From IMG/VR virus record IMGVR_UViG_3300044731_000955, positions 1-61,473 of that record: a DNA stretch of 61,473 bases; one strand, written 5' to 3'. Within the stretch, counting starts at the first letter, position 1, and every line of letters starts with the position of its first letter. Of the stretch, positions 3,603 through 45,589 are shown piece by piece. The notes beneath the pieces were generated by a model, which was not told the origin of the DNA, made no database searches, and saw nothing but the letters and a program-made list of their open reading frames with translations. This DNA comes from a virus (taxonomy: Duplodnaviria; Caudoviricetes). The position numbers were made by a program, and so were the translations under genes.

Positions 3603-3827
3603 TTATATTGTCCACTTTTTTTCCGGACAAGCGTCTGCTCCCACAGGTGAGAACACTTTAGCACTCGTAGTACAGCCACATTTACCACAATAATCGCGTA
3701 TAGTAGATTGCACCCAAAACTCACAATTAGCACATATTTCAAGTCTTTTTTCAGCCACTTCTTTTTGCTCTTCTGTTGGGTTCATAGCAGTCATATAAGA
3801 CAGCAGGATTTCTTTTACTTTGTTCAT
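3603..3827 (-). CDS. Small Cys-rich metal-binding protein (DUF6171-like)
   Basis: R-x3-CxxC...CxxCGC...K...CP-x2-KW pattern. Confidence 0.65.
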   Translation of the reverse strand: MNKVKEILLSYMTAMNPTEEQKEVAEKRLEICANCEFWVQSTIRDYCGKCGCTTSAKVFSPVGADACPEKKWTI

Positions 3828-4471
3828 AAATTTAGATATGTTTTGTAAGATGATGAAGTATTTGCATTTTTTATGTAATATTTAAACTCTTCATTGTTTT
3901 CATAAGTTTCTTGGTTAAATTCCCAAGGATAATGTCTAGCTACATATGGGTAGGTAGTGCTTGCTCCACCAACAAAATAAGGGGTTCCTTTTTTATACAA
4001 AGCAAAGGTAGTATCTATTGCTATATCTGTGTAGATATTGTTTGTATGAGCAGAATTCCATCTATTTTTTTCGTATGATTGTAGATGGTTATAATATAAT
4101 GAATCTTCTTTTACTATTCCCCAATTCAATCCTAATCCTATCTTATCTAATCCTAATGAGTCCATATTATCTTTTAAATACAAAAGAGTATCTGAAGGTG
4201 TATCTAGTAAACCCACATCTGCGTCCGTTATAACATAATCATAATTTGTTATAACATCACCTAGTATTTGCCAAGGAGCTGTATGCCCTATGTTTTCTGT
4301 TCTGTGTATTGTGCATGGGCTTGTATCATACCATTCTAGAAGTGGTGGATAGTCTGAGCCATTATCTATAATAATAATTTCACCCACTCCTTCGTAAGTT
4401 TTAATCTTATTTACCATTTCTACCACCCAAGTAAATAGATTTCTATTATTTATAATTACAGGTATATTCAT
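3824..4471 (-). CDS. Glycosyltransferase, GT-A/GT2-like
   Basis: IIIIDNGS and VITDAD (DxD) motifs. Confidence 0.8.
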   Translation of the reverse strand: MNIPVIINNRNLFTWVVEMVNKIKTYEGVGEIIIIDNGSDYPPLLEWYDTSPCTIHRTENIGHTAPWQILGDVITNYDYVITDADVGLLDTPSDTLLYLKDNMDSLGLDKIGLGLNWGIVKEDSLYYNHLQSYEKNRWNSAHTNNIYTDIAIDTTFALYKKGTPYFVGGASTTYPYVARHYPWEFNQETYENNEEFKYYIKNANTSSSYKTYLNL

Positions 4472-5025
4472 TAATTATGTACATATAAAACTTTATCAAT
4501 CTTCACATAGTCTTGATATGCTTGCATTACCTTCTCTACAAAGTACCCATCAGCAGCATATTCTTTGCCTAATATTATATTTTTCCCTACATCGTTTCTT
4601 ACTGCAAATGCTCCAATATCTATTTGATTAAACACTAGTGAGCATTCAAAAAAATGGTATTCGTAATGAGAATGCACCATGTCCCAATATATTATTGCTG
4701 GATTAAATTCAGATGCTTTAGATAACTCCTCAACAAAATTTGGGGTGTAATAATTATCATCACCACTCATTACAATATATTTAGCTACACTATTTTGTTT
4801 GCCTAATTCTCTAGGCGTATGTCCCCAATCATTATATGTTTTATCTAATAGTGTATATTTTATTCTGTCATCTTTTACAATGTCAATTTGGTTAAATTCA
4901 TCTACGCTATTATCTATAATTACATTAGCTACCCAATCTGTATTTGTCTGAGCTAATAATGAATAGAGCATACTCTTTAGTTCATTAATTCTATTGTAGG
5001 TTGGTATAATAAAATCTACTATCAT
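4471..5025 (-). CDS. Glycosyltransferase family 2
   Basis: IIPTYNR, SLLAQT, GDDNY motifs. Confidence 0.85.
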   Translation of the reverse strand: MIVDFIIPTYNRINELKSMLYSLLAQTNTDWVANVIIDNSVDEFNQIDIVKDDRIKYTLLDKTYNDWGHTPRELGKQNSVAKYIVMSGDDNYYTPNFVEELSKASEFNPAIIYWDMVHSHYEYHFFECSLVFNQIDIGAFAVRNDVGKNIILGKEYAADGYFVEKVMQAYQDYVKIDKVLYVHN

Positions 5026-5762
5026 TTATTTAAGAAGTCTTTTAGTAATTGGCTGTAATCATATTTCCAATTTGGATTTAGATACACATCACCCGTTGGT
5101 ATTTTACCTTGCATTCTTAACGATTCTATATGTTCAAAATGCCTTACAATTACGCTTGGCTTAGAATCATCATTATCGCTACCCATTCCGGACATATGGT
5201 AACCCCTTCCACCCCATACATAGAACCAACTAACTTCATCATCCGGTGGTGATGCTAGAACTACTTTTTCGGGGAAGTTCTCCTTAATGCTAATAACAAA
5301 TGTCATGTCATAGCCAGCATTTTCTAATGGATGTTTACCCACTCCTTCCCATGCTTCTCTGCTATATACTATACCACTATTACCAAGTGATGTAATGGCT
5401 TGTATATCAGGTACATTAAAAAATATTCCTTTTTGCCAATGCATCAATGCCGTTCCTTCTACAAAATATTTATCTATATTTTTTAGGTGATTTGGTAAGG
5501 CTAAGTCATCGTCATCCCAAACTATAATTGTATCTCCTTTACATTGTGATACTGCAAAGTTTTCTTTATCTCCAATAGTGGGAAATGTATAATCTAAATT
5601 AATTATTCTTACATCTGGATGGTCAAATATTAATTTTTGTTCTGGATAATCATTTACGATTACTAATTCTTTTTCTCCGTCATAATCTTGATTTAAAAAA
5701 GATTGTAAAGACTCTTCTAAATATTCCACTCTTCCGTATGTAATCATCTTGCAAGAAAGCAT
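5022..5762 (-). CDS. Glycosyltransferase family 2
   Basis: TYGR...SFLNQDY...ELVIVND...WDDDD motifs. Confidence 0.85.
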   Translation of the reverse strand: MLSCKMITYGRVEYLEESLQSFLNQDYDGEKELVIVNDYPEQKLIFDHPDVRIINLDYTFPTIGDKENFAVSQCKGDTIIVWDDDDLALPNHLKNIDKYFVEGTALMHWQKGIFFNVPDIQAITSLGNSGIVYSREAWEGVGKHPLENAGYDMTFVISIKENFPEKVVLASPPDDEVSWFYVWGGRGYHMSGMGSDNDDSKPSVIVRHFEHIESLRMQGKIPTGDVYLNPNWKYDYSQLLKDFLNK

Positions 5763-5768
5763 AATTTA

Positions 5769-6698
5769 TTATTTTAAAACTGTTTTTAAAGCTGTTTCGC
5801 ATATCTCATTCCAATAATAAGAAGATGCTCTATCGGGGCTGATTTGAAGGTCGGCGCCATAGGGCAATTTATTTATGTATTCACCCTTAAAGAATAATCC
5901 ACTAATAGAATCTGTAACGCCTGCGTTATGCAGTATAGTATATGTTTCTACATCTGAGTAATTGTTAGTAACCCACCCAAAATCCATTCTTTTATCTACT
6001 CTTGTTTCATGCCCAAAGTACCATGCGTTCCAAAGAAAAGACCACATTCCTGCTGTCCACTTTTGAATAGGATAATCTCCGTCATGCTTCATTTTATAAT
6101 TTGGTTCTTCGTCACAGAAATATTTATATAAAATAATAGAGTCTAGTTCAACCTTTTCCCAAAATTCAAAGGTGGTATTTTTAACTATGTATTGCGCTCC
6201 CCCAGAATTATTATTCAAAAGCTTTGGTATTAATTTGTCAATGCCAATTATCTCACACATCTTTTCATACACATGATTGCCCTTCTGTTGAATATAATCG
6301 TAATTTATGTAGCTGTTTGTATCACTTAAAAACCATGAATTGCCCGCTATCATTGAATTAAACTCCGGTTTCTTTGTGAAAACAATATCCGAATCATGTA
6401 AAAATAAAACCTCATTCTGCAACTCCGGATGAGCTAGTAAATGTTGTTTCATTAGATTAAAGTAAACGGATGGGATATAAAATTTATCTACCCTATTATC
6501 ATTATAAAAAAAGAAATTAACCGGATATGTCTCTTTTAATTTTTGCCAATCATCGGGTATAATATCATTATCAATGGAACATACTATGTTAATACAATCT
6601 GTATCAACGCCCATTTTTATAAAATTATTAATTAGAACCTCGCACTGCCAAGTGTAGTATGGTATAGCGGGTTGGCAACAGACGTATCTTAACTTCAT
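5769..6698 (-). CDS. Glycosyltransferase resembling GT96/GT95 (peptidyl-serine galactosyl- / Hyp arabinosyltransferase-like)
   Basis: YYTWQ near N-terminus, LHDSD DxD, GGAQYI, WTAGMW; same motif order as plant SERGT1/HPAT. Confidence 0.6.
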   Translation of the reverse strand: MKLRYVCCQPAIPYYTWQCEVLINNFIKMGVDTDCINIVCSIDNDIIPDDWQKLKETYPVNFFFYNDNRVDKFYIPSVYFNLMKQHLLAHPELQNEVLFLHDSDIVFTKKPEFNSMIAGNSWFLSDTNSYINYDYIQQKGNHVYEKMCEIIGIDKLIPKLLNNNSGGAQYIVKNTTFEFWEKVELDSIILYKYFCDEEPNYKMKHDGDYPIQKWTAGMWSFLWNAWYFGHETRVDKRMDFGWVTNNYSDVETYTILHNAGVTDSISGLFFKGEYINKLPYGADLQISPDRASSYYWNEICETALKTVLK

Positions 6699-6736: not shown

Positions 6737-7114
6737 CTAATATTCTTTGTAAGATTTTTCTTCGGTTAGTTCTGAGCCGTATTTTGTATTGATTTGTTTT
6801 TTGATGATGGCTCTGACATCGTTTAATTGGTAAACCTCCCGAGCTAGTTCTACGAACTTATCTCCAAAGTCTTTTTTGTGTTCATAGTCCCTTAAACTAT
6901 CTTCTACTGCCCATAGTTTTTTGTTTATGGAGTATAGCTCTTGTACTAATGGGTCTATTAAAATGACTGAGTGCTTTTTATTTAGGGCGTTTTTTACCAT
7001 TTTCCACTCTTTGTCTATGTTTATAAGCTTTTCTGTATCGTGTATTAAAAGCTTTTTTATGGTTAGGATGGTATATTTGTCCACCACTTCACCGATGCTG
7101 ACTTCTATTTTCAT
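6737..7114 (-). CDS. DUF6165-like protein (commonly next to glycosyltransferases)
   Basis: EVSIGEVVDKYTIL...LWAVED...FVELAREVYQLND-R...EEKSY signature. Confidence 0.75.
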   Translation of the reverse strand: MKIEVSIGEVVDKYTILTIKKLLIHDTEKLINIDKEWKMVKNALNKKHSVILIDPLVQELYSINKKLWAVEDSLRDYEHKKDFGDKFVELAREVYQLNDVRAIIKKQINTKYGSELTEEKSYKEY

Positions 7115-7386: not shown

Positions 7387-8751
7387 ATGCCTACAAGCTA
7401 CCCGCTCTACAAAGATTCTGTCCGAAATTGGTTTCTGCAAAATGTCCCTTTAGATACTACTATATTAGATATTGGAGCAGGATGTGGTACTTATAGTGAT
7501 TTGATTCGTGGTTATGGTTATAAAATGGATGCGGTAGAAATATGGGAGCCATACATAAACCAATATGGGTTAAAGAATAAGTATGGGTGGGTGTATGAAG
7601 AGAATGTCCTTAAAATGCCCCTTGATGTACTTGGAGCCTATGACTTTTATATATTGGGTGATATTTTGGAACATTTGTCTGTGGAAGATGCCCAATGGCT
7701 CATGAATTTTTTAAAGATAAAAGGTAAACAATATCTTATAGCTGTGCCTTATGTTATGGAGCAAGGTGAGTATGAAGGCAATGTCCATGAAACCCACTTA
7801 CAGCCTGACCTTACGCCAGAAATAATGCTAGAAAGATACCATGATTTAGAACTGCTTTATGGCAATAATTTCTATGGTTATTACACAAATAAAAAACAAA
7901 AACATGAGAAAGCTTACGTCCTTTATGCTGATGATTCCTATTATGACCTTGTGGATGCTTGTTGTCGTTCCATTAGAAATTTTAGTGATTACCCTATATA
8001 TGTTTATATGCTTAATTCTTCTCAAAAGGTGAATGTGGTAAATACCATTACTAAAAGATGGGATTGTGATGTAATACATTTAAAGAAGCGTAATGATTAT
8101 ATAGTTAGAGAAGATAAGCAGATATATAAGCTACTGATTGAAAGACCTAAGATAGTAAGAGATGCTTTGAAATATGCTGAAACCGTTGCCTATATTGACA
8201 CAGATAGCATAGCAAACTGGAACGTAGATTCTATTTTTGATTATTATGATGTAGAATCAGACTACCCATATTTTACAAAGGGAATATATGATTTCTTAAT
8301 AATTAATGGTAAAGGTGGTGCGAGTAGTTATGATGACTTGAGTGATACATTGGAAGCGCCATTGTGTGAATTGTTTAAATCAGACCAATCAATAAGAAAA
8401 TTTACTGGCTATAGGCAAACTGGTTACTTTGTTGCCGGTCAAAAATCTATTGATTTCTTAGATATTTGGGCGCATAGATGTCAACACCCAATGATATTAA
8501 AAGACAATGCAAGATATGCTCCATACAATGAAGAAAGCGTTCTGCAAACGTTATTATATGATTTTAATGCACACAAAGGATTACCATTAATTTATGTCAA
8601 TGGATTACGCAAGGGGCTTGAGTTTAAAGGATATGAATACTTTATGGGTGAATGGTTTAAAGTACCTGCACAAAAAGATGATTTACTTTTTTACCATGGA
8701 GAAAAAGATATAAATAAGATTAATGAATTTATAGAATATTTAAAGTTATGA
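7387..8751 (+). CDS. Class I SAM methyltransferase fused to GT-A glycosyltransferase
   Basis: ILDIGAGCG and GDILEHL in N-half; YIDTDSI DxD in C-half. Confidence 0.75.
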   Translation: MPTSYPLYKDSVRNWFLQNVPLDTTILDIGAGCGTYSDLIRGYGYKMDAVEIWEPYINQYGLKNKYGWVYEENVLKMPLDVLGAYDFYILGDILEHLSVEDAQWLMNFLKIKGKQYLIAVPYVMEQGEYEGNVHETHLQPDLTPEIMLERYHDLELLYGNNFYGYYTNKKQKHEKAYVLYADDSYYDLVDACCRSIRNFSDYPIYVYMLNSSQKVNVVNTITKRWDCDVIHLKKRNDYIVREDKQIYKLLIERPKIVRDALKYAETVAYIDTDSIANWNVDSIFDYYDVESDYPYFTKGIYDFLIINGKGGASSYDDLSDTLEAPLCELFKSDQSIRKFTGYRQTGYFVAGQKSIDFLDIWAHRCQHPMILKDNARYAPYNEESVLQTLLYDFNAHKGLPLIYVNGLRKGLEFKGYEYFMGEWFKVPAQKDDLLFYHGEKDINKINEFIEYLKL

Positions 8752-10799
8752 AGATAGTATTACTTTGCCCTTCGTTAAGTACGGGTGGTATGCCCCAATT
8801 TGCATTAAAAAGAATTCAAGAAATATTAAAGCATACTGAAAATGTAGAGATGTATTGTATTGAGCTTAATTTTCATGGGGCTGATTTTGTGGTTCAAAGG
8901 AATCAAGTAATTAAAATACTTGGAGATAGATTTTATGAGGCTGGTTTGAACAAAATGCGAGTAATAGATATTATCAATGAGATTAAGCCTGATGTGGTTC
9001 ATATTGAAGATGTGGCAGAGAGATTACCAAAGGAGCTTGCAACTGCCTTATATAGAAATGATAGACAATTCTATATCGTTGAAACGCCTCATGATAATAT
9101 ATTTAACCCTGACGCAGAAAAAATTTTCCACCCAGACCTTTATGCTTTTTGCACTCCTTTTCATGAGGACGTTTACCAAAATATGGAGTCTTTATACTTT
9201 ACAATTCAATATCCAATAGAAGAAAAAAAAGTAACTAAGGATATGAGGATTAAAGCTAAGAAAGAAGTAGGGTTTGCCTTGGATAGAAAGACGGTGTTGC
9301 AAGTGGGATTATGGACTCCACAAAAAAACCAAAAAGAAACTATTGCTATTGCTCGTAAATATCCTAATATAGATTTTGTGGTAGCTGGTAATTTGGCTGG
9401 TAATTTTCAATTTTATTGGGAAGAATTAATAAAGGATTTACCATCTAATTTTAAAGCTCTTGGTGAGAGAAGTGATATAGATACTTTGTTGCAAGCTGCT
9501 GATATATTTATTTTCCCATCTACCAATGAATGTTCTCCTTTGTCTTTGCGTCATGCTATTGAAGTTGGTTTGCCTATTGTAGCCAATAACTTACCCGCTT
9601 ATGCAGGAACCTTAGATAAGTATTTAAAACCCTTAGATTCCAATTTAAATACCATTACCAGAGATTATAAAATACCAAATAGTAACAATTCAAGAAACTT
9701 TGCACTAGAGCATAAAAAAATGTATGAGGTTCTTATGAAAATACCAATCAAAAAGCAAGCTGTTTCCATCACGCAACACTTTGTCAATCAGCCATTCTTA
9801 GAGATTAAAGGTAATAGTGAGAGTGATTTTTTAGTTCAATTTTTAGACGAAAAAGGTAGTATATATTACCAAAATACGATAAAAGCAAACCATTGGGTAC
9901 GATTAAATAGGCAGTGGTACACAAAATGGAGGACAAAAGTTTTTGAGGGCAAAGACTTGATTTACAATAGCACCTTGGACCTAGAAGGTAAAAAAGTTTT
10001 TATAGCTATTGATAGTAAATCACTTGGAGATTCGCTTGCTTGGATGCCCTATGTGGAAGAGTTTAGAAACAAGCATAATTGTACGGTGGTTTGCAGTACA
10101 TTTTGGAATAAGATATTGGACTATCCAGAGATTGAATTTGTGGAGCCGGGGACGATGATAGGATGTTATGCCATGTACACTTTGGGGTGGCATTGGAACG
10201 AAGATAAAGAACCAACCCTTTGCAATACCATTCCTTTGCAACAATCAGCTAGTAATATCCTTGGATTGGATTATGTGGAGCTAAAACCACGCTTAAAGTA
10301 TGATATTGGAGAAAATAAGTATGGCAAGTATGTCACAATCGCCACAAACAGCACTGCGGGGCTTAAATTTTGGCTTAAACCATCTTGGCAACAAGTTATC
10401 AACCACCTACACGAAAAGGGCTACAAGGTCATAAATACGTCCAAAGAACGCAATCCATTTGAAAACTGCTACCAATTAGAAGATACAAGCATAGAAAATA
10501 CCATGTCTGTTATCCATCATAGTGATTTTTTTGTAGGGCTTAGCAGTGGAATTTCATGGCTTTCCTTTGGGCTTGGCAAGAAGGTGGTAATGATTTCAGC
10601 CTTTACAGAAGCTGACCACGAGTTTGACTGCATCAGACCCCGCAATAACAATGTATGTACAAATTGTTGGAATGACCCTAAGATTAAATTCGATGCGGGA
10701 GATTTCAATTTCTGCCCGCATCATAAGGGTACTGAGAGAATGTTTGAGTGCCAAACGAGTATCACACCCGAAATGGTTATTCAGCAATTGCCTCTGTAA
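8748..10799 (+). CDS. GT4-like glycosyltransferase fused to AAH/TibC-like protein O-heptosyltransferase
   Basis: STGGMP and AADIFIFPS..E (GT4); SLGDSLAW, IPLQQ, FVGLSSGISWL, VVMIS and CxxCWN...CP...C (TibC iron-binding Cys). Confidence 0.8.
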   Translation: MKIVLLCPSLSTGGMPQFALKRIQEILKHTENVEMYCIELNFHGADFVVQRNQVIKILGDRFYEAGLNKMRVIDIINEIKPDVVHIEDVAERLPKELATALYRNDRQFYIVETPHDNIFNPDAEKIFHPDLYAFCTPFHEDVYQNMESLYFTIQYPIEEKKVTKDMRIKAKKEVGFALDRKTVLQVGLWTPQKNQKETIAIARKYPNIDFVVAGNLAGNFQFYWEELIKDLPSNFKALGERSDIDTLLQAADIFIFPSTNECSPLSLRHAIEVGLPIVANNLPAYAGTLDKYLKPLDSNLNTITRDYKIPNSNNSRNFALEHKKMYEVLMKIPIKKQAVSITQHFVNQPFLEIKGNSESDFLVQFLDEKGSIYYQNTIKANHWVRLNRQWYTKWRTKVFEGKDLIYNSTLDLEGKKVFIAIDSKSLGDSLAWMPYVEEFRNKHNCTVVCSTFWNKILDYPEIEFVEPGTMIGCYAMYTLGWHWNEDKEPTLCNTIPLQQSASNILGLDYVELKPRLKYDIGENKYGKYVTIATNSTAGLKFWLKPSWQQVINHLHEKGYKVINTSKERNPFENCYQLEDTSIENTMSVIHHSDFFVGLSSGISWLSFGLGKKVVMISAFTEADHEFDCIRPRNNNVCTNCWNDPKIKFDAGDFNFCPHHKGTERMFECQTSITPEMVIQQLPL

Positions 10800-13695: not shown

Positions 13696-14360
13696 ATTAA
13701 ATCTTTTTTATATTTCCATTTAAAACCTCTATGGTAGTGGCTTAAACCTCTGCAAACCTTTGATATTGAAGCTGAGCTATATCCTATTTTAGATGCTGCA
13801 TTTACACTTTTATATGTAGCTACAAGTTCTCCATCTAAACTAAATTGATGTACTTCCATTGCTGGTCTATAACAAGTACAATTTCTTTTTTTATGAATTA
13901 AATTCTTCTTGGATTCTCTTATCTTATCTTTTGTTTCTTGAGATAATCTAGTAAAAGTTCTTGTTAAAGCAAATTTTTCTCTTTGCCCTTCCCTTTGGTA
14001 AACTTTTTTAACCGCTTCTCCTGTTTTCTTTCTATGCTCGTCACTATAAATATATTTTCTACCAAGCGTTCCTTCATCACCTCCATCAGTATAATTACAT
14101 AAAGTACCTGTACCCAAGTCTTTTCTACCATATAACTTGATAAATTCCTTTTCTTTTTCACAAGATTCCTCGTGAGTCAAATTATCAAGTAATATTTCTA
14201 CCTCAAAATCTGTTTTATTTGTAATATTTTGCCATAATTTATTTCTTCTATGTTTATGACTTTTGTCATAGGCTCTAGCATAATTGTCATCAGTTGCTGA
14301 AATGCCAATATAGAATGGTTCATTATTGTCTAATCTGATATGTCTGTAAACGTATGCCAT
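13692..14360 (-). mobile_element. Free-standing GIY-YIG-like homing endonuclease with NUMOD3/NUMOD1-like DNA-binding tail
   Basis: YVYRH...FYIG...R...E...N-TDGG; HQFSLDGELVATYKSVNAAS...ISKVCRG...GFKWKY. Confidence 0.8.
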
Positions 14361-17300
14361 TATTTTGTAGCTACAATTTTTTTAAGTTCTTCAATTTGTG
14401 CTTGTTGTTCTTGAATAGCTTTTGTTAATATTGCTATCATATTGTTATACTCAACACCAGCCAAAGTAACACCATCTTCTTGATAAAATACTAAGTCTTT
14501 ATTAACCTTTTCCACCTCATCAGCTATAAAACCATAAGTTATATTATCATATAATTCATCAGTAAATTCATTTGTTATATTATCTTTTTTACGATAATTA
14601 AATTGTACTGGATTAAGTTGATTAATAAAATCAACATTACTTATAGATTCTATATTTGCCTTTGATTCTCTTGTGGATACTAAATATCCTAATACTCCAG
14701 ATGAACTTAATATAGCAGTTCTACCAGTTGCTGAAATATTATAAGGTGAATTAGTTTGTGTACCAGTTTCTATTAATCCATCATTTCTAACTTGAAACAA
14801 AGCATTTGCGGCACTACTTTCAACTCTGAAACCAAATGTAGCACTTGTCGCACCAGCTCCTCTAACAGCTAATCTCATGTCTGAATATCCAGTCATTCCG
14901 ATTCCAACATTCCCCCCACTTGTAAGAGTAAATGGTTGATTACCTGCGGTTTCATTATATATAAACAATGAAGTAGTTCCTAAACCAAATTTATATTTTT
15001 GAGCAGTTCCACTTGTTTTTTCAAATGTTATTGTACCACCTTCTGTACCACTACTTGTTATATGTAGCTGTCCTACTGAGCCACCATTATAAGCAGTAGA
15101 TAAAGTTCCTGTTGTTGCCGTTACACTACTTGAGAATGTAGCTGCACCTGTTGAGGCTATGGTAAGTAATGTAGTAGCTCCTACCCCACTAAACAATCTT
15201 AAATTAGTTGAATCAACAAGCAAAGAATAAGTTAAAGGTGTACCACCGCCTGTCATTACAAAATAAGTATCCCCAGTACTAGACAAATGCAGTTTACCAC
15301 TTGGACTACTTGTTCCAATACCAAGATTACCTGAAGCGTCAAGATTCATTCTTTGTACCCAAGTAAGTGCATTGTCAGCAGTTCCGCTTGCAGCAGTGTA
15401 CCAACGATGGTCAGAGCCGTCAATAAGATATTGACCTGCTACGTCTGTAAATTTATATTTCCAACCTGTATCAAAATAACTATTTGTTGTTAAGTATAAT
15501 ACATTAGCACTATTTTGGAAAGCAATAGCAGATTGATTATTTGTATCTCCACCTTCTAAAACTCTAAAAATACTTCCCCACGCACTTATTGTTGTAACTC
15601 CTACTCCTATATTACCACTAAACGTAGCACTTGTACCACTTAAAGCTCTTGACACTAAGGTAACAGTAGTACCATTATCTGTGATTGCACTATCTCCTAT
15701 TGTACTTGATGCTGTGAACTTTGGTATTGTATTAATTGTACCAGAACCAGCTATTCCACTATAAGCTCCTACTGAATAAGAGTAAGCATAAACTACTACT
15801 ATATCATTTAATTGACAAGCTGTTGCTAATATTATACTTGTACCATTGGTTGCAGTATATTCTGATTGAGCAAGATTAGAACCATTATAAAAAACATCTA
15901 TTAAGCCTTGAGTATAACTTACTGAAAAAGTAGTTTGCGCAGCTGTCGCAGTAAAAGTAGTTATAGTTCTTAATGCATTTGTTGGTAAATATGCCGTCAA
16001 TAAATTATCAATCTCAACAATGTTACCAGCCGCTAAAGCCGCCGCCATAACCACTGTTGTACCATTAGTCGCAGTAAAATCAGTACCATTTACAAACTTA
16101 ACTCCATTCACAAACACATCTACCATTCCAAGATTGTAACCATTGGTAACAGTAAAAGTTGTCTGTCCTGATGTCGATGTAAAAGTCTGAACCGCTCTCG
16201 CTGATGTTGTTGCGTTACCGCTTGTCCCAGACGACCCACTAGTCCCTGTGGAGCCACTTGTCGCAGATGTCCCAGACGTCCCAGTCGTCCCCGATGAGCC
16301 ACTTGAGCCAGCCGAACCTGACGTCCCAGACGTTCCACTAGTCGCAGACGACCCAGATGTCCCAGTGGTCCCACTTGAGCCAGATGACCCACTTGAACCA
16401 GCCGAACCTGATGACCCTGTTGAACCATCAACACCACTAGTTCCAGAAGACCCACTTGACCCTGCCGAACCGCTTGAACCTGTATTTCCACTTGACCCAT
16501 TTATACCACTTGACCCACTTGACCCTGACGAGCCACTAGTTCCTGAAGTTGTACCTACAGCTACACCAATTTGTTTTATGTTGGTAATTATTGAAGGAGC
16601 TGCTGGTATTGTTCCTGTTGCAGCTACTGCTGTTACTTGTACATCAGATGCATTTGCTTGAAAATAAACTTCATAATAATCATTAGCATTTGCACTATCA
16701 ATAATAGAAACGAATGGTAACTGCTTTGCACTTTGGCTTCTTAAACCTAAGATAGAATCAGTTCTAATAATATTAGCTCCATTTTTCTTTAGCCAAATAT
16801 TAACATCTGCACCTCCACCACCTGTATGTTCAATTTGTAATGAATATGCTATTTCATAGATACCAGTATGTTGAACTGTAAGTTGTGAACCAGAATATAC
16901 TATACCATTACTTAATTCATCATTTGTGTATGTAATTGCTGTTGGTGTATTTGCCGCTGTAACCACTTGAGTAGATGTACTTGTAAACGCACCATACCAG
17001 TTAGCTATTGAAGCTCCTGAAGAACCATCAATACCATTACGACCAGTAGTCCCAGATGTCCCAGCTGACCCACTGCTGCCAGATGTCCCAGAAGAACCAC
17101 TGCTGCCAGACGACCCACTTGTCCCAGTTGACCCACTGGTCCCCGCTGTCGCAGATGTCCCAGAAGTACCACTAGACCCATCTCCTCCACTCGCACCATC
17201 TAAGTTAACAGACCAAGCAGAATAAGTTCCGCTACCTACTGTTCTAGTTGGAGCTGCGAATGATAAAGAACCTGTTGCTGGATTATAAGCTGTAACCTCA

Positions 17301-18007
17301 CACTCTTGGAAGTTATTAGCGTCATAAACCACAATTATAGATTGAGCTACCGTATATGCTAATTGAGTACCTACAGTTAAAGTTCCTGCATTACCCAATG
17401 TAAATGTTGTCGATGAAGTTGTGGCATATCTGTCACCTTGTAAACCACTTGTACCAGAAGTCCCAGATGTTGCACTACTGCCAGAAGTTCCAGCCGTACC
17501 ACTTGTCGCAGACGAACCACTTGTCCCACTTGTCGCAGACGTTCCAGATGACCCACTTGAACCTCCCGTTCCGTCTGTGGCAGATGTTCCAGAAGACCCA
17601 CTCGACCCACTTGTTGCAGATGTCCCAGAGGAGCCACTAGTCGCAGATGAGCCAGATGTCCCACTTGTTCCCCCCGTTCCGTCTGTCGCAGATGTTCCAG
17701 AAGTCCCAGATGTCGCAGACGACCCACTTGTCCCCGCGGTAGCAGATGTCCCAGATGACCCACTTGTCGCAGATGAGCCACTAGTCCCTGCGGAGCCAGA
17801 TGACCCAGAAGTCCCAGACGAGCCAGATGTCGCACTTGTACCTGCAGTCCCTGATGTCGCACTTGTTCCAGATGACCCAGACGAGCCAGAAGTCCCAGAA
17901 GAACCAGAAGAGAAGCTCGTAGCGGTCACAATTCCGTCCGTTGCTACAAGAACTCCGTTAAGACCTCTTACCTTTAAATCGCCTGAAATTAATCCTTGTA
18001 TTGCCAT
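14360..18007 (-). CDS. Long tail fibre: Gly-Ser/Thr collagen-like tracts, C1q/BclA-like domain, fibre repeats, S74 chaperone
   Basis: Three G-X-Y tracts (GTS/GSS), GIYEIAYSLQ C1q-like strand, GNVGIG repeats, STRESKANI chaperone. Confidence 0.85.
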   Translation of the reverse strand: MAIQGLISGDLKVRGLNGVLVATDGIVTATSFSSGSSGTSGSSGSSGTSATSGTAGTSATSGSSGTSGSSGSAGTSGSSATSGSSGTSATAGTSGSSATSGTSGTSATDGTGGTSGTSGSSATSGSSGTSATSGSSGSSGTSATDGTGGSSGSSGTSATSGTSGSSATSGTAGTSGSSATSGTSGTSGLQGDRYATTSSTTFTLGNAGTLTVGTQLAYTVAQSIIVVYDANNFQECEVTAYNPATGSLSFAAPTRTVGSGTYSAWSVNLDGASGGDGSSGTSGTSATAGTSGSTGTSGSSGSSGSSGTSGSSGSAGTSGTTGRNGIDGSSGASIANWYGAFTSTSTQVVTAANTPTAITYTNDELSNGIVYSGSQLTVQHTGIYEIAYSLQIEHTGGGGADVNIWLKKNGANIIRTDSILGLRSQSAKQLPFVSIIDSANANDYYEVYFQANASDVQVTAVAATGTIPAAPSIITNIKQIGVAVGTTSGTSGSSGSSGSSGINGSSGNTGSSGSAGSSGSSGTSGVDGSTGSSGSAGSSGSSGSSGTTGTSGSSATSGTSGTSGSAGSSGSSGTTGTSGTSATSGSTGTSGSSGTSGNATTSARAVQTFTSTSGQTTFTVTNGYNLGMVDVFVNGVKFVNGTDFTATNGTTVVMAAALAAGNIVEIDNLLTAYLPTNALRTITTFTATAAQTTFSVSYTQGLIDVFYNGSNLAQSEYTATNGTSIILATACQLNDIVVVYAYSYSVGAYSGIAGSGTINTIPKFTASSTIGDSAITDNGTTVTLVSRALSGTSATFSGNIGVGVTTISAWGSIFRVLEGGDTNNQSAIAFQNSANVLYLTTNSYFDTGWKYKFTDVAGQYLIDGSDHRWYTAASGTADNALTWVQRMNLDASGNLGIGTSSPSGKLHLSSTGDTYFVMTGGGTPLTYSLLVDSTNLRLFSGVGATTLLTIASTGAATFSSSVTATTGTLSTAYNGGSVGQLHITSSGTEGGTITFEKTSGTAQKYKFGLGTTSLFIYNETAGNQPFTLTSGGNVGIGMTGYSDMRLAVRGAGATSATFGFRVESSAANALFQVRNDGLIETGTQTNSPYNISATGRTAILSSSGVLGYLVSTRESKANIESISNVDFINQLNPVQFNYRKKDNITNEFTDELYDNITYGFIADEVEKVNKDLVFYQEDGVTLAGVEYNNMIAILTKAIQEQQAQIEELKKIVATK
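17430..17910 (-). repeat. Degenerate 9-bp-period Gly-Ser/Thr repeat (first of three tracts; others ~17015-17195 and ~16205-16550)
   Basis: Repeated gtcccagatg/gacccactt words; protein GTSGSSATS. Confidence 0.85.
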
Positions 18008-32709: not shown

Positions 32710-34692
32710 TTATAATTGAGTACAGTTTGTTGTATCAGAACAATCTGTTGCAAATCCTCCGAAAGAAATATTTGGAGAAGTGGCTGTTGCGCCCACAAAA
32801 CTATCTATAAAATAACATGTTGTAGGTGTACCACCTGTTATATAATAATATGAACCAACAGATAATGAACTAGAAGTAATAATATTACTTGTTCCTCCAT
32901 CGCAAATTGTAGCAGTATATTCAAAATAATCAAGAGGAGGTGGTGGCGGTTCAGTTGTGGTTGTAGTCGTTGGTGCAGCAGTTGTAGTTGTTGGAGCAGC
33001 AGTAGTTGTTGTCGTAGTACAATTTATTGTTACAGCTGTATTTTGAACTGATGTTTGAGGTAATGAATCTCTAACTGCAGTATACCAATTACCATTTGCA
33101 ATACCACTAAAATTATGAGAAGTAGCACCACCACCTAAAGTAACTCTAAACCCACCAGCTCCGCAAGCTCCGCCCGCGACACAAGTTGCTGCATTTGCTT
33201 GTGAATCTGCAATGGCTACAAAATTATAAGTACTTGTTCCACCTGTGAATGAAGCTGTAAATGAACCTGTTGTGCCGCTACAAGTTACACCACCATTAGT
33301 TATTACTAAAGGAGGTAATGTTGTAGTTGTTGTAGTCGTTGGAGGAAGTGTCGTTGTCGTTGGTGCAGCAGTTGTAGTTGTTGGAGCAGCAGTAGTTGTT
33401 GTCGTAGTACAATTTATTGTTACAGCTGTATTTTGAACTGATGTTTGAGGTAATGAATCTCTAACTGCAGTATACCAATTACCATTTGCAATACCACTAA
33501 AATTATGAGAAGTAGCACCACCACCTAAAGTAACTCTAAACCCACCAGCTCCGCAAGCTCCGCCCGCGACACAAGTTGCTGCATTTGCTTGTGAATCTGC
33601 AATGGCTACAAAATTATAAGTACTTGTTCCACCTGTGAATGAAGCTGTAAATGAACCTGTTGTGCCGCTACAAGTTACACCACCATTAGTTATTACTAAA
33701 GGAGGTAATGTTGTAGTTGTTGTAGTCGTTGGAGGAAGTGTCGTTGTCGTTGGTGCAGCAGTTGTAGTTGTTGGAGCAGCAGTAGTTGTTGTCGTAGTAC
33801 AATTTATTGTTACAGCTGTATTTTGAACTGATGTTTGAGGTAATGAATCTCTAACTGCAGTATACCAATTACCATTTGCAATACCACTAAAATTATGAGA
33901 AGTAGCACCACCACCTAAAGTAACTCTAAACCCACCAGCTCCGCAAGCTCCGCCCGCGACACAAGTTGCTGCATTTGCTTGTGAATCTGCAATGGCTACA
34001 AAATTATAAGTACTTGTTCCACCTGTGAATGAAGCTGTAAATGAACCTGTTGTGCCGCTACAAGTTACACCACCATTAGTTATTACTAAAGGAGGTAATG
34101 TTGTAGTTGTTGTAGTCGTTGGAGGAAGTGTCGTTGTCGTTGGTGCAGCAGTTGTCGTAGTACTAGTTGTTGGTGCAGCAGTTGTCGTAGTACTAGTTGT
34201 TGGTGCAGCAGTTGTCGTAGTACTAGTTGTTGGTGCAGCAGTTGTCGTAGTACTAGTTGTTGGTGCAGCAGTTGTCGTAGTACTAGTTGTTGGTGCAGCA
34301 GTTGTAGTTGTAGTTGTTGGCGCAGCAGTAGTAGTCGTTGTTGGCGCAGCAGTAGTAGTCGTTGTTGGTGCAGCAGTTGTCGTAGTAGTTGGAGCAGCAG
34401 TTGTTGTTGTAGTAGTAGTTGTAGGTGCAGCTGTAGTAGTCGTAGTTGTTGGAGCAGCAGTAGTTGTTGTAGTAGTTGCTGAATTTATATTTAAAATCAA
34501 ACTATTAGTACAACTACCTAAAGATGTAATTGTTACACTAGTTGCAGAATTATCTACAGTAGCATAAATTCCAGATAAAAGCTCAGTAAGAGTTGCGTTG
34601 CTAGGATTAATAGTACCAGTATTTACATTTAATGTAAAATTTGGTCCTAAATTTAAACCTTGACCTGAATTTAATGTAACTAATACTATCAT
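32710..34692 (-). CDS. Mucin-like Thr-rich virion/surface protein with three identical Cys-containing beta domains
   Basis: TTTTTAAP tracts and 130-aa unit repeated three times. Confidence 0.75.
   Translation of the reverse strand: MIVLVTLNSGQGLNLGPNFTLNVNTGTINPSNATLTELLSGIYATVDNSATSVTITSLGSCTNSLILNINSATTTTTTAAPTTTTTTAAPTTTTTTTTAAPTTTTTAAPTTTTTAAPTTTTTAAPTTTTTTAAPTTSTTTTAAPTTSTTTTAAPTTSTTTTAAPTTSTTTTAAPTTSTTTTAAPTTTTLPPTTTTTTTLPPLVITNGGVTCSGTTGSFTASFTGGTSTYNFVAIADSQANAATCVAGGACGAGGFRVTLGGGATSHNFSGIANGNWYTAVRDSLPQTSVQNTAVTINCTTTTTTAAPTTTTAAPTTTTLPPTTTTTTTLPPLVITNGGVTCSGTTGSFTASFTGGTSTYNFVAIADSQANAATCVAGGACGAGGFRVTLGGGATSHNFSGIANGNWYTAVRDSLPQTSVQNTAVTINCTTTTTTAAPTTTTAAPTTTTLPPTTTTTTTLPPLVITNGGVTCSGTTGSFTASFTGGTSTYNFVAIADSQANAATCVAGGACGAGGFRVTLGGGATSHNFSGIANGNWYTAVRDSLPQTSVQNTAVTINCTTTTTTAAPTTTTAAPTTTTTTEPPPPPLDYFEYTATICDGGTSNIITSSSLSVGSYYYITGGTPTTCYFIDSFVGATATSPNISFGGFATDCSDTTNCTQL
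32966..34155. repeat. Perfect tandem repeat, 390 bp x ~3.05
   Basis: Identical sequence at 390-nt offsets (e.g. 33245, 33635, 34025). Confidence 0.95.
34141..34305. repeat. 30-bp tandem repeat x5.5 (tggtgcagcagttgtcgtagtactagttgt; TTSTTTTAAP)
   Basis: Directly visible in lines 34141-34290. Confidence 0.95.
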
Positions 34693-34712: not shown

Positions 34713-37700
34713 TTATGGAGCAGCTGTTGTCGTAGTTGTGCAATTTATATCTGATGCAGCAGTGTCAATTGTTCCAAAACTATCTATTACATATACCAAA
34801 AACTTATCTGAACCGCCTGTTGTATTTCTTAATCCTAATGTTCCATCATAATTAGCGGTTGGGCTAGTTATTACAAATGGGTCTGTCGTTACAGATACAA
34901 GGGTATCATAAGTAGGGACATATCCAGCTTTTATTTGATAAAGACCACTACCACCAGTAATAGCTACTGATGCTTTGCCAAGATAAGTAGAACCGGGCTG
35001 AGTATTATCACAAGAAATAGTTACTACAATTTCCAAAGGTGGTATTGTAGTAGTACTTGTAGTTGTTGCAGGGCAAAAAGTTAATCCACCACCTGCTGAA
35101 GAAACACTCCATTGTATTCCACCCGGGTCTGTGTAAAGTACTTGGGTTACATAGAAGAATAAACCACCTCCGTAAACAACTCTTTGGTCAATAGCAAACG
35201 TACCATTAGGGAATGATGCAGATGTTTCGATTACTCCTGATGAACAATTATATAAATTATACCAAACTGGTGGTTGTGTGGTTGTTGTTGTCGTTGGTGC
35301 AGCTGTAGTAGTCGTAGTTGGCGCAGCTGTAGTAGTCGTAGTTGGCGCAGCTGTAGTAGTAGTAGTAGTAGTAGGAATTATAATAGCAGTACCACCATTG
35401 TAATTACAATTATAATATCTATCAATCTCTTCCAAAGCTATTATATACTTATTAGTATAAGCATCAAATACACCATAAATACATGGATTCCCCATATATA
35501 CTCCTGTTTCAACTACCCCATTATTCAATTCTTGTCTATAAGCGCTTAATTTAGCAACAAAGAATGCATTCATATAATTAGTTATACTAATTGGAGTAAT
35601 ACCATCTTGACTTAATCTACAAACTACACCTCTATAATTATCTACGAAATAATCTGCAAAGTTGTTCCACGCTAAGCTTGTTGCTGCGTCCCCAATACCA
35701 TAATCCCCAGCGTAATACTGTATTTTATTAATTAAAACATCTGTATTAGCTTGCAATGGGTTGTTAGCACTGTCCTTAACTATTTGTGTTAAAATAGGCA
35801 CATTACCTACCTTAAATTTTTGATAAACTTTTAAATATCTATCCCTAACATGCAATCTTATTACATCGCCAAAGCTTCTATCGTATTCATCAAAGTTTTC
35901 AAATTTAAAATTATTTATTTGATTAATATTAGTATTTATTTGATAAGCACCCCCAAATCTAATTAATGTAGGGAAATACGTTTGTTTTGCATTTTCATCT
36001 ACTACGGATACCCTTCCGTTGCTATTAGTAACTAAATTATAAGTATCATTAAAGCTTTTTTCTATTATTGGAATAGTATAATTTTTTAATAAATTAAAAT
36101 TTAAATTAAATGCATTTAAAGTAAATGTTTCTCCTGCAAGGGTGTTTGAACTGTAAACAGCAATCCATACCTTTGCAGTTGCTGGAATTGATATAGTATT
36201 ATCTAAAATAAAATTAGTTACAATTTGAGATTGAACAACTTCTGTTTTTGTTAAATCTAATAAAGTTGAAGTGCTTGCCGTTAAAATAATAGCCTTTATA
36301 CTAAATGTTGTATTATTATTTGCTTGAGATTGAAACACAGAAAATTCCCCCGATAGTCTCAATAACAATGCATCTGTAGCCAATAAATTATTAAAGAAAA
36401 AATTAGCACTTGCATAAGTAGGATAATTTGCAGGCAAATTGTTGTTAAATGCTTGAGTTTTAACAATATAATCAGATGTTGTTATTGGAGAATCAGTTAC
36501 AGTAATTTGCATTAATGAATTAATATCTTGACTTGTGCCACCTGCTGTAAAAACAAATGCATCACTGTAAGAAACTTTTCTTTTTCTCCAAAATAAATCT
36601 CCATTTGTTAAAGAAACTATTGCAGGTACTGATGTTGGAGAAGATGCTGATTGAGTTTGTTCTAATCCAATATGATAAGCATTGCTTGTACCAGCATTGC
36701 CTATCCCAAAACATTTATCAACTTCATAGAAAAATTTTTGTGTAGAAGATGAGTTACTTGTATAGTTGTATAAGAATATTTTATAATGTAAATAATTAGA
36801 ATCACCTGTAAACATAATATCTGAACCAGTTCCAGAAGGGAAAGCTATTTTTATAAAATTACCAGTTTTAATAGTACCATCCCCTAGAGTAATAACAGCA
36901 TTTGTTCCTAAAACTTCATAGTCATATAAAGTTGTAAATAAAATTTGTGTATTAGAAGAATTATATCTTGCTAAAAAGGTAATTCTATCTCCTTGTGTAA
37001 AATTATATGAAACCACCCCTTGAGTGGATGTTATTAATTCATTATATGCATCTATATTACTTATGTCTACATATGCAAATCTTTGTACAGTAGTATCTAC
37101 CGAAGTGCTTGCATAAGCCGCTTTAGAAATCCAAAATAATCTTTTATTGTATGTTGTATTATTTGACCTCAATACATGATAATAAGAAGCCTCTAATGGC
37201 GGTCTATTTTTTATTTCTAATTTAGTAATTGGATACCTATACACAGTAGGGTCACCGGGGACTATTTGAGTGGTAAAAGATGCATCTATATCTGTTTGCG
37301 CTCCTATTGTTCTTCCTAAATAATCAAAATATTGAACTGCATATTGGTACCCAGATGAAAACGCATTTGCAAACACCGTATTATCAGGCGCATTAGCTGG
37401 AAATAAAATCTTTACACCGCTAGAAAGCAATTTAAATATTGAAGAATTTGACAAAGTAAGTATATTATTAACCAAAGACACTTGTGTCCATCCTCCTCCG
37501 TTTGTAGTAAATGCACTAGAAATAGCAGTTAATAACGTAGAAACAGTTACGCTGTTTGTATTATTTGTGTAAGAAACACCTATACTTGTTCCTGCGCTAT
37601 TGATTATATTTACCATATATATACCGCCAGCATTATCAAGTGTTGATATTATTCCAGAGGTATTTGTTCCAGTACCGTAAATATATATTTTTAATATTGT

Positions 37701-38831
37701 ACCATCAACCCCACTATCTAGTCCATTAACTGTAGCAAAAAATAACAATCCACATTTATCAAAATAGTAGCTATCTAAAGCGTCTTGTGATACCGAAACT
37801 AAGTTCATTGAGGTTTTATTATAACCTTCAGTGATACCAGAATACAATAAGACATTCCCATTGGCAAGTTCGGCAGCGTTTGCTCTTTGAGGAACATAAT
37901 CTTGCAACTGCTCGGTTTCTAATACATCAATTTGTGAATAAATACCGTCATTATAAAATTTATAATTATACAAATCATAATCAGGCACAGATAAAACTTC
38001 TTTATTGAAAGAACTAATTAAGTACCAATCAGTTGTAAAACCATTTGTTGTTTCTCTAAAAGCTATTTCGATAGCTCTTACATCAATTCCACCAGTACTT
38101 GTTGATACTGAAATTCTAGCATTGTTAGTTGGAATATCGCTAGTTAATAACAAAGTATCTTGTTGCGGCAATGGCACTATACTTCTAGCGCTCCAAACTG
38201 ATTTTTCATTATTATCATAAACATATCTGTAACAAAACTGAAATAAAGTATTTCTTACATTATTTACATTTACAGTAGTATCATTTTCGTAAACTACTTT
38301 AGGTGGCATTATTGGAGGAGCTTTAGCTACCAATATATATTCTAATTTCCAAGAAGTGCCATAATTATCAGATACATTAATTACTTTTGGTGGATTTAGT
38401 CCATCATTAAAAAACAATAAATCTCCTTCGTCATCTCTGTAAAAAATATTTACAGACAACACCTTATAAGAAGGATTAAAATTTAAAATGTCTATACTAT
38501 CGCTATCTGTTTTGCTTTCTAAAACTTTTACAATAGCTTCTGTACTAGCATTATAATATAAAATACTATTATAACCATTACTATTCCAAAGAAAATAATA
38601 AGCTCTATCTCTTACCTTATCTGGATAAAATCCAATTACTTTATTTTCACCCGCAGGCACTGTATACGCTATTTCAGTATTACCTAAGATATTAGCAATA
38701 ACCAAATCGTTACCGATTCCTTGTGAATCTTTAGTTATATTCAATGCATCAATATAATCTCCATTGGAAATTCTATATTGAGCAACATCTAAATTTAGCT
38801 TACCATTAAACGGGTTATTTATAATTGGCAT
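34713..38831 (-). CDS. Tail muzzle/stabilisation protein (crAss-type, P22 gp10-like), N-terminal and central part plus Thr-rich extension
   Basis: F-G-LN-D...Y-DALN start, L-FNDG-NPP--IN, QF-YRY-Y...E-S-WS, G-YGI, YFVD--RGVVCRL, GVFD. Confidence 0.8.
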   Translation of the reverse strand: MPIINNPFNGKLNLDVAQYRISNGDYIDALNITKDSQGIGNDLVIANILGNTEIAYTVPAGENKVIGFYPDKVRDRAYYFLWNSNGYNSILYYNASTEAIVKVLESKTDSDSIDILNFNPSYKVLSVNIFYRDDEGDLLFFNDGLNPPKVINVSDNYGTSWKLEYILVAKAPPIMPPKVVYENDTTVNVNNVRNTLFQFCYRYVYDNNEKSVWSARSIVPLPQQDTLLLTSDIPTNNARISVSTSTGGIDVRAIEIAFRETTNGFTTDWYLISSFNKEVLSVPDYDLYNYKFYNDGIYSQIDVLETEQLQDYVPQRANAAELANGNVLLYSGITEGYNKTSMNLVSVSQDALDSYYFDKCGLLFFATVNGLDSGVDGTILKIYIYGTGTNTSGIISTLDNAGGIYMVNIINSAGTSIGVSYTNNTNSVTVSTLLTAISSAFTTNGGGWTQVSLVNNILTLSNSSIFKLLSSGVKILFPANAPDNTVFANAFSSGYQYAVQYFDYLGRTIGAQTDIDASFTTQIVPGDPTVYRYPITKLEIKNRPPLEASYYHVLRSNNTTYNKRLFWISKAAYASTSVDTTVQRFAYVDISNIDAYNELITSTQGVVSYNFTQGDRITFLARYNSSNTQILFTTLYDYEVLGTNAVITLGDGTIKTGNFIKIAFPSGTGSDIMFTGDSNYLHYKIFLYNYTSNSSSTQKFFYEVDKCFGIGNAGTSNAYHIGLEQTQSASSPTSVPAIVSLTNGDLFWRKRKVSYSDAFVFTAGGTSQDINSLMQITVTDSPITTSDYIVKTQAFNNNLPANYPTYASANFFFNNLLATDALLLRLSGEFSVFQSQANNNTTFSIKAIILTASTSTLLDLTKTEVVQSQIVTNFILDNTISIPATAKVWIAVYSSNTLAGETFTLNAFNLNFNLLKNYTIPIIEKSFNDTYNLVTNSNGRVSVVDENAKQTYFPTLIRFGGAYQINTNINQINNFKFENFDEYDRSFGDVIRLHVRDRYLKVYQKFKVGNVPILTQIVKDSANNPLQANTDVLINKIQYYAGDYGIGDAATSLAWNNFADYFVDNYRGVVCRLSQDGITPISITNYMNAFFVAKLSAYRQELNNGVVETGVYMGNPCIYGVFDAYTNKYIIALEEIDRYYNCNYNGGTAIIIPTTTTTTTAAPTTTTTAAPTTTTTAAPTTTTTTQPPVWYNLYNCSSGVIETSASFPNGTFAIDQRVVYGGGLFFYVTQVLYTDPGGIQWSVSSAGGGLTFCPATTTSTTTIPPLEIVVTISCDNTQPGSTYLGKASVAITGGSGLYQIKAGYVPTYDTLVSVTTDPFVITSPTANYDGTLGLRNTTGGSDKFLVYVIDSFGTIDTAASDINCTTTTTAAP

Positions 38832-45184: not shown

Positions 45185-45589
45185 TTAAGGTGCTGCTGTT
45201 GTTGTGGTAGTAGGCGCTGCCGTTGTCGTTGTTGTTGTATTACCTTGTAATAACAAATATTTACCAATAATACCAAATTCAACAATACCAGCTGCCGCAA
45301 TTGATGCAATATCTGTTTTGGTTGTTAAATTAACTCCTAAAACCGAAACCCAGTTAATTGGCACTTCTGGTGCAGGTGATAATTGCCCTGTAATAGAACC
45401 ATCATCGTTAGTAGTACTAAAACTAACTGTTCCAGATGTACCTACAAATTGTACTACCGCAGAATCCCATCCAGATAAATCTTGGTAAAAATTATTATTA
45501 GCATTAAAAGAATCTGTTGCATCTACAACTGTGCTAATTTTTGAACTAAATTTTTGTAGTCTTATTAAAAGTTTACTTACCGTTGCCAT
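45185..45589 (-). CDS. Putative head decoration protein with C-terminal TTTTTTAAPTTTTTAAP tail
   Basis: Beta-rich, between portal and scaffold; Thr tail visible. Confidence 0.55.
   Translation of the reverse strand: MATVSKLLIRLQKFSSKISTVVDATDSFNANNNFYQDLSGWDSAVVQFVGTSGTVSFSTTNDDGSITGQLSPAPEVPINWVSVLGVNLTTKTDIASIAAAGIVEFGIIGKYLLLQGNTTTTTTAAPTTTTTAAP

Follow-up and report, generated by a model that had tools for sequence, protein, structure and literature searches.

The window analysed here, 61,473 bases in length, is the complete IMG/VR virus record IMGVR_UViG_3300044731_000955 (estimated completeness 98%), a member of the Caudoviricetes whose host is probably a member of the Flavobacteriia, since its terminase was ~28% identical to the terminases of Flavobacterium and Cellulophaga podophages. 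On its minus strand, at 5769..6698, an open reading frame (ORF) running from ATG to stop encoded a soluble DxD glycosyltransferase-like protein of 309 residues belonging to the family PHROG 4417 (the target in what follows). From its motifs and from the order of genes around its relatives, this protein is probably a cytoplasmic enzyme that O-glycosylates poly-Thr/Ser tracts of virion proteins, and it is likely to initiate the glycan. The initial annotation had described the reading frame and four motifs within it, all of which were recovered: YYTWQ (residues 14-18), LHDSD (100-104), SGGAQ (165-169) and KWTAGMW (213-219). In an alignment of 96 relatives these motifs fell on the columns with the highest conservation, and Y74, D104, Y130, Y135, G167, M218, W219, F240, H257 and K271 were invariant and W17, D102, Q169, Q212, W214 and N258 were conserved in at least 90% of the sequences. 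The conserved features of the target included the DxD motif itself (D102/D104), H257, K271 and a QxWTxxMW motif; a DxD motif together with a conserved C-terminal His is the usual metal-site signature of GT-A glycosyltransferases. No hydrophobic segment was detected in the target (maximum Kyte-Doolittle value of 1.01 over 19 residues), and a scan for promoters and terminators returned the same counts as in shuffled sequence.

The target matched the PHROG 4417 profile with an E-value of 1.8e-72 (residues 4-301 on positions 2-290 of 293), a family annotated as 'function unknown' in PHROG. Out of 1681 candidate proteins, 1495 were homologous to the target at E<=0.001, and the family resolved into 827 clusters at 50% identity, of which 356 lay at E<=1e-30. 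By tblastn, the family was encoded in 77 GenBank phage records, each with at most 41% identity to the target. Grouped by the first word of the organism name, these carriers were distributed over Lactobacillus (23), Enterococcus (21), Staphylococcus (11), Lactococcus (8), 'Bacteriophage' (6), Clostridium (3), Lacticaseibacillus (2), and Chryseobacterium, Arcanobacterium and Levilactobacillus (1 each). The target had no Pfam match at E<=1, an NCBIfam scan returned nothing meaningful, and sequence and profile searches of the PDB (with the target, A1 and the wider A3) identified no glycosyltransferase, the matches being due to chance (for example, TAL repeats and geminin). Members of the family were frequently fused to other glycosyltransferase domains (among them GT2, GT7C, GT6, GT29 and GT25), and the closest representative at the 50% level (P0122, 71% identity) was fused to a radical S-adenosylmethionine (radical-SAM)/SPASM module.

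The proposed function is carried mainly by the position of the enzyme gene relative to genes for proteins with poly-Thr/Ser tracts. In a sample of 80 viral loci from IMG/VR containing homologues of 44-71% identity, a protein was scored as tract-positive when at least 9 of 10 residues were Ser or Thr, and positions were counted from the enzyme gene. The protein encoded directly upstream (position -1) was positive in 52 of the 78 loci examined, decreasing to 17 of 73 at position -2 and 10 of 66 at position -3, while none was positive downstream (0 of 77, 74, 71, 60 and 54 at positions +1 to +5, respectively). A second measure, requiring at least 50% Ser+Thr in a window of 60 residues, gave 50 of 76 upstream and 0 of 69 downstream; all other ORFs together gave 87 of 1167, with the 50 upstream positives counted among the 87. 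For 80 loci from bacterial genomes the same position stood out, with 29 of 77 positive at -1 and 9 of 592 at the nine other positions together. The positive upstream proteins, 93 in number, fell into 13 BLAST clusters after masking, and those assigned by PHROG included major tail (phrog_88, phrog_1407) and major head (phrog_10, phrog_840) proteins; other neighbouring families in the viral loci were mostly unannotatable. The tracts consisted of 67% Thr, 12-14% Ser, 6% Pro and 4% Ala. In prophages of Bacillota, the tract formed the C-terminal tail of a tail-tube protein of ~210 residues, and a small protein encoded five genes upstream often had a poly-Thr tail as well. The enzyme gene of these prophages had the tail-tube gene on one side and the tape-measure region on the other, and the flanking genes that were examined included no further recognisable glycosyltransferase. 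In a tree of 160 homologues (FastTree), the poly-Thr label was clustered (25 changes, compared to 45 in shuffles), with no clean split. The loci displayed one of the features expected of phage virion-protein glycosylation systems, namely the linkage of a glycosyltransferase-like gene to structural genes for proteins with a candidate acceptor tag. Because the enzyme gene directly follows genes for capsid, tail or fibre proteins with poly-Thr tails, and does so in many unrelated phages, it most likely serves to coat virion proteins with sugar.

The association was also followed in six named phages from GenBank, all of which fitted it, Enterococcus phage Planchet in another reading frame only. 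In Lacticaseibacillus phage iLp84, poly-Thr was found on a 125-residue protein encoded directly upstream of the enzyme and also on the capsid and tail-tube proteins; in Enterococcus phage phiFL2B, poly-Thr was present on the tail-tube protein gp48, encoded directly upstream, and on the head protein gp43. The upstream poly-Thr protein was the tail-tube protein in Staphylococcus phage RQ1, gp18 in Clostridium phage phiCTP1, and a protein of 428 residues in Chryseobacterium phage MA9V-3. In Planchet, the enzyme gene came right after the capsid gene, and the poly-Thr frame was found past the capsid stop codon, out of frame; this stretch (locus L085, 3772-3890) encoded ~40 poly-Thr residues just before the enzyme gene and may represent a frameshifted extension of the capsid protein. 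Similarly, the tail-tube gene of RQ1 (locus L084, 3235-3937) ended in TTTTTTTP, and an overlapping ORF added ~70 residues of poly-Thr repeats, which may correspond to a frameshift-extended form of the tail-tube protein. The enzyme homologue of phiFL2B, gp49 (locus L083, 4001-4909), is annotated as 'major tail protein'; going by the annotation of the sister phages phiFL1A and phiFL2A, the true tail-tube protein, of SPP1 type, is gp48, encoded upstream. Five orthologues of gp48, three of them from Streptococcus phages (57-60% identity) and one each from phiJL-1 and cIP1 (50-53%), lacked the poly-Thr tail. None of the five phage genomes encoded a member of the family (0 of 5; 5 of 5 for known carriers used as positive control). 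Across whole genomes, no ORF with five or more consecutive Thr was present in any of the five non-carriers (50-54 ORFs each), and 3, 2 and 3 such ORFs were present in the carriers iLp84, phiFL2B and phiCTP1, respectively, all of the runs being C-terminal.

Several results weigh against a general pairing of enzyme and tag. The co-occurrence just described (3 of 3 carriers versus 0 of 5 non-carriers, Fisher p=0.018) came from a small sample, and Fisher p-values are in any case optimistic here, because the loci are related by descent and their independence is overstated. Position -1 was without a strong tract in 26 of the 78 viral and 48 of the 77 bacterial-genome loci, and strict adjacency to poly-Thr genes was a property of the relatives, not of the window phage. 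A reverse test started from 118 IMG/VR stretches selected solely for an (ACN)10 tract; 95 of these had the Thr10 in frame, and the family was found in only 8 of the 118, or in 7 of the 65 loci in which the poly-Thr ORF was followed by 1.2 kb or more of sequence. Most poly-Thr phage proteins are therefore without an adjacent gene of the family, which in cis covers only about a tenth of poly-Thr phage loci; the remaining loci must be served by other enzymes or by distantly placed genes, as in the window. For the six family matches among the first 80 reverse-test loci, the enzyme gene directly followed the poly-Thr ORF. Within the in-frame Thr10 loci (from the set L172-L289), 87 of 95 had no PHROG 4417 gene in the fetched stretch.

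Four proteins with poly-Thr linkers or tails were encoded in the window itself and constitute candidate acceptors. The first, at 32710..34692 (minus strand; 660 residues), contained long T5-8-A-A-P linkers between three repeated domains, and its N-terminus recurred in the products of genes immediately preceding the enzyme gene in four of the related loci (L004, L015, L045 and L056). Adjacent to it, at 34713..38831 (minus strand), a virion structural protein of 1372 residues (phrog_14478, E=2.2e-56) carried T5-7-A-A-P linkers and a C-terminal TTTTTAAP, and homologues of this protein were encoded directly upstream of the enzyme gene in three loci (L012, L080 and L082). The T5-8-A-A-P tags accounted for a bump in GC content at 32-36 kb. 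A protein of 134 residues in the head-gene region (45185..45589, minus strand) ended in the tail GNTTTTTTAAPTTTTTAAP, and a protein of 115 residues encoded on the plus strand (51288..51635) likewise had a C-terminal poly-Thr tail. A further candidate was a 1215-residue tail fibre (14360..18007, minus strand) with long Ser/Thr/Gly triplet repeats and matches to PHROG tail-fibre and collagen-like families. The description of the target as lying 'next to' Ser/Thr/Pro repeat proteins in the initial annotation was too loose for this phage, as the poly-Thr proteins were encoded 26-45 kb away and the nearest gene for a Ser/Thr-rich fibre started 7.7 kb from the target. The fibre genes at 11019-12389, 12391-13695 and 14360-18007 (minus strand) shared a conserved C-terminal module of ~120 residues (GYLVSTRESK...), which by eye may resemble an intramolecular-chaperone domain. 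Between the fibre genes, a 222-residue ORF (13692-14360, minus strand) had an N-terminus that appeared GIY-YIG-like by eye, and in 14 of the 80 viral loci the enzyme homologue was closely followed, on its downstream side, by a SegE-type GIY-YIG gene.

The genes surrounding the target encoded at least four recognisable glycosyltransferase domains. Downstream on the minus strand, two GT2-family glycosyltransferases were encoded at 5022..5762 (246 residues; Pfam PF00535, E=1.4e-11), 7 bp from the target, and at 4471..5025 (184 residues; PF00535, E=2.7e-10), followed in the same gene string by a 215-residue protein with no family match (3824..4471) and a Cys-rich, weakly DUF6171-like protein of 74 residues (3603..3827; phrog_13558, E=1.5e-10; DUF6171, E=0.0024). 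The 246-residue GT2 protein is a candidate chain-extending enzyme, and 5 of 65 long relatives combined a homologous domain with that of the target family in one protein. The 74-residue protein shared 51% identity with the C-terminal end of P0144, a relative of the target that carries a fusion, and also matched P0240, and a fused DUF6171 domain was present in 2 of 81 relatives; such fusions elsewhere suggest a functional link between the target and these two neighbours. Directly upstream of the target, also on the minus strand, was a DUF6165 protein of 125 residues (6737..7114; PF19662, E=9e-11). Two genes on the plus strand followed: a divergent protein of 454 residues (7387..8751), with a weakly SAM-methyltransferase-like N-terminus (Pfam models at E 0.01-0.16, below cut-offs) and no relative in a PDB search, and a fusion of 683 residues (8748..10799) combining a GT4-type glycosyltransferase (PF00534, E=8.6e-15) with a TibC/Aah-type protein O-heptosyltransferase. 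The latter part (residues 360-680) belonged to TIGR04414 by score (239.4 bits relative to a cut-off of 200) and matched TibC in the PDB (4rap) with E=2.6e-45. A TibC/Aah-type protein O-glycosyltransferase is unusual for a phage of Flavobacteriia type, and relatives of this gene were found in four phage records. The neighbours of the target in the window seldom recurred near its homologues (in 0-8 of 80 loci for each neighbour), so that the complete cluster is not conserved as a unit. Comparison of the family profile with three neighbouring window proteins by hhalign gave nothing, a weak negative given that the templates were single sequences.

With regard to mechanism, we infer a soluble, cytoplasmic, metal-dependent DxD enzyme that would take a sugar from a host nucleotide-sugar and transfer it, before or during virion assembly, to the hydroxyls of Thr, and of some Ser, in the poly-Thr tracts of newly made virion proteins. 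The acceptors in the window would be the T5-8-A-A-P linkers and tails of the four proteins, and possibly the Ser/Thr/Gly-repeat tail fibre. The target most likely initiates the glycan, which the products of neighbouring GT2, GT4 and methyltransferase-like genes would extend, trim and decorate, and the TibC-like domain may act on a second class of acceptors. The expected outcome would be mucin-like glycan brushes on the virion, which might function in shielding, protease resistance or adhesion. The protein O-glycosyltransferase activity on Ser/Thr repeats put forward in the initial annotation is well supported by gene context, and the initiating role appears probable; the latter fits the Bacillota prophages, because the enzyme is the sole recognisable glycosyltransferase beside the structural genes and would therefore have to start the glycan there.

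A second type of genomic context was encountered in ~25 bacterial loci (Chitinophaga, Pedobacter and Mucilaginibacter) without a poly-Thr neighbour, where the homologue was a fusion of 570-590 residues with a GT7C-like C-terminus. Annotation of 10 proteins from three of these loci (L119, L130 and L113, from Chitinophaga and Pedobacter genomes) identified, next to the fused homologue, a radical-SAM enzyme, LanC-like proteins, a GT1-type enzyme, a C39-peptidase ABC exporter and an erythromycin-esterase-like protein. In their gene content the Chitinophaga and Pedobacter loci look like clusters for ribosomally synthesised and post-translationally modified peptides (RiPPs), which makes them candidates for the production of glycosylated ribosomal peptides, and a RiPP-like neighbourhood implies a peptide acceptor.

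The homology to the plant families GT95 and GT96 claimed in the initial annotation found weak support in sub-cut-off matches of relatives to the HPAT model (PF23452) and none in the target, which lacked any Pfam match. In single Pfam scans of 63 relatives (E<=10), HPAT ranked first, with 2 of the 63 matching it at a best E-value of 1.3e-4; DUF6492 likewise had 2 matches. The best match, that of P0231 (36% identical to the target), reached 21.9 bits and remained below the curated cut-off of 23.9; residues 9-242 were collinear with positions 9-230 of the 307-position HPAT model, and the aligned stretch corresponded to target residues 11-250, covering all four motifs. Given ~170 proteins scanned in all, this match appears unlikely to be due to chance, and it is better taken as a lead to remote homology than as family membership. 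In the ESM Atlas, PF23452 was the sole common family in 20 of the 30 named neighbour clusters of the target and DUF7164 occurred in 6 of the 30; the single cluster viewed in detail had PF23452 on 10% of its members. A further 81 relatives gave 0 HPAT matches at E<=0.001, a six-frame search of the window record with PF23452 gave no match, and a sequence search with P0231 returned 85 matches, with no plant protein and no precomputed PF23452 among them. PF23452 was also without a match in two phage records and five homologue-bearing genomes and in 0 of 802 sampled genomes (401 Bacteroidota and 401 Bacillota), weak negatives that show little, because the controls gave no match either.

Since HPAT is the sole glycosyltransferase model to touch the family, and does so below its cut-off, homology of the target family to GT95/GT96 is plausible and goes no further; as HPAT enzymes act on peptides, the match would also count in favour of a peptide acceptor. 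The window protein did not reach the curated HPAT cut-off and did not possess the type II membrane anchor of the Golgi-located plant GT95 enzymes, the HPAT alignment of P0231 beginning at residue 9, and membership of the target in GT95/GT96 is therefore not claimed. As background to the comparison, GT95 is predicted to have a GT-A-like fold (in a passage of PMC8476585), and passages in reviews relate GT95 to GT96 and to GT8. A wider reading, offered tentatively and more doubtful than the function proposed for the target, would make PHROG 4417 the prokaryotic and viral branch of the plant GT95/GT96 superfamily, a group of ancient peptidyl-hydroxyl glycosyltransferases initiating glycans on extended low-complexity tracts. 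These enzymes would then build poly-Thr-tag glycan brushes on the capsids, tail tubes and fibres of many Bacillota and Bacteroidota phages (with Enterococcus, Staphylococcus, Lactobacillus, Lactococcus, Clostridium and Flavobacteriia as hosts) and would glycosylate ribosomal peptides in Chitinophagia and Sphingobacteriia.

Other functions for the target were weighed against O-glycosylation of poly-Thr tracts. The target might extend a chain whose first sugar is added by another enzyme, such as the TibC-like domain of the fusion protein (8748-10799) or one supplied by the host, as the window cluster does contain a protein O-glycosyltransferase-type domain (239 bits to TIGR04414, E=2.6e-45 to TibC) and the family is often fused to other glycosyltransferase domains, such as GT2, GT7C, GT6, GT29 and GT25. 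The enzyme was, however, the sole glycosyltransferase-like gene in the neighbourhoods examined in Bacillota prophages, iLp84, phiFL2B, RQ1, Planchet and phiCTP1, and TibC-like genes are rare in phages (four records), so that a purely extending role is unlikely. It is more unlikely still that the target builds or modifies a glycan of the cell envelope (capsule, lipopolysaccharide (LPS), teichoic acid or a receptor) and alters the host surface in the manner of phage conversion enzymes. Its place in a GT2/GT4 string resembling a polysaccharide cluster, the weak DUF6492 matches of some relatives and the LPS-type GT25 among the fused partners would be in line with such a role, which is opposed by the lack of a membrane segment and by the location of the gene in temperate Gram-positive phages, where it lies within the late head-tail operon instead of occupying a lysogeny or moron position; such a role would also leave the positional link to poly-Thr proteins unexplained.

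That the target is a true GT95/GT96 orthologue, with the plant activity of adding arabinofuranose or galactose to Hyp/Ser motifs, seems very improbable. The HPAT and ESM Atlas results described above speak for it, yet every match was below cut-off, the window protein had none, and the sampled 802 bacterial genomes contained no match (a search in which no positive control matched either); moreover, the likely acceptors are poly-Thr and not Ser-Hyp4, no prolyl hydroxylase was seen, and a membrane anchor is lacking. Glycosylation of hypermodified bases in phage DNA, which is a common activity of phage glycosyltransferases (a statement in PMC12619734, citing Pyle et al. 2024) and might be thought of in view of the methyltransferase-like gene nearby, appears the most remote of these alternatives, because small prophages place the gene between structural genes and because the signal from gene order and co-occurrence points to poly-Thr proteins.

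If O-glycosylation of poly-Thr tracts by this family is correct, glycosylated virions would be common in phages of Enterococcus, Staphylococcus, lactic acid bacteria, Clostridium and aquatic Bacteroidota, with a bearing on the pharmacology of phage therapy, on dairy phage biology and on the reading of cryo-electron microscopy maps. A family that is labelled hypothetical and comprises 827 or more sequence clusters would acquire a function, the tag and the enzyme could form a portable pair for glyco-engineering, and the plant GT95/GT96 families, so far described as plant-specific, would gain a prokaryotic and viral relative. No description of a pairing between poly-Thr tag and enzyme was found in searchable full texts, a scope that leaves aside subscription journals and supplements.

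Among known systems, the TibC/Aah heptosyltransferases (TIGR04414) are cytoplasmic protein O-glycosyltransferases acting on Ser of repetitive passenger domains, and such a domain is encoded 2 kb from the target; the likeness concerns this neighbour (8748-10799), as there is no sequence relation to the target. The known glycocin-type peptide glycosyltransferases of RiPP clusters (SunS-like) belong to GT2. The fused homologues of the target resemble them in adjoining genes for radical-SAM, LanC-like and C39-ABC exporter proteins, and differ in that a PHROG 4417-like domain with a GT7C-like partner takes the place of GT2 (10 proteins, three loci). The plant and algal enzymes HPAT (GT95, PF23452) and SGT1 (GT96) add the first sugar to hydroxyls of repetitive, extended peptide tracts (as described in passages of PMC4908140 and PMC8012813). 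The HPAT model is collinear with the 36% identical relative P0231 across the region of all four motifs; by comparison, the phage protein is soluble, without a type II anchor, the window protein has no match to the model, and its likely acceptors are poly-Thr and not Ser-Hyp4. In mycobacteriophages Che8, Corndog and Myrna, phage glycosyltransferases glycosylate the C-termini of capsid and tail-tube proteins (Freeman et al. 2023, as cited in PMC12619734 and PMC12363180), and according to these citing passages virion glycosylation alters antibody recognition. The relatives of the target gene similarly follow head and tail-tube genes with products ending in poly-Thr, whereas the enzyme family differs, no Mycobacterium phage was among the 77 phage records matched by tblastn, and the hosts here are Bacillota and Bacteroidota. 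Virion glycosylation is accordingly familiar from mycobacteriophages, and what would be new here is another enzyme family, other hosts and a simple poly-Thr tag.

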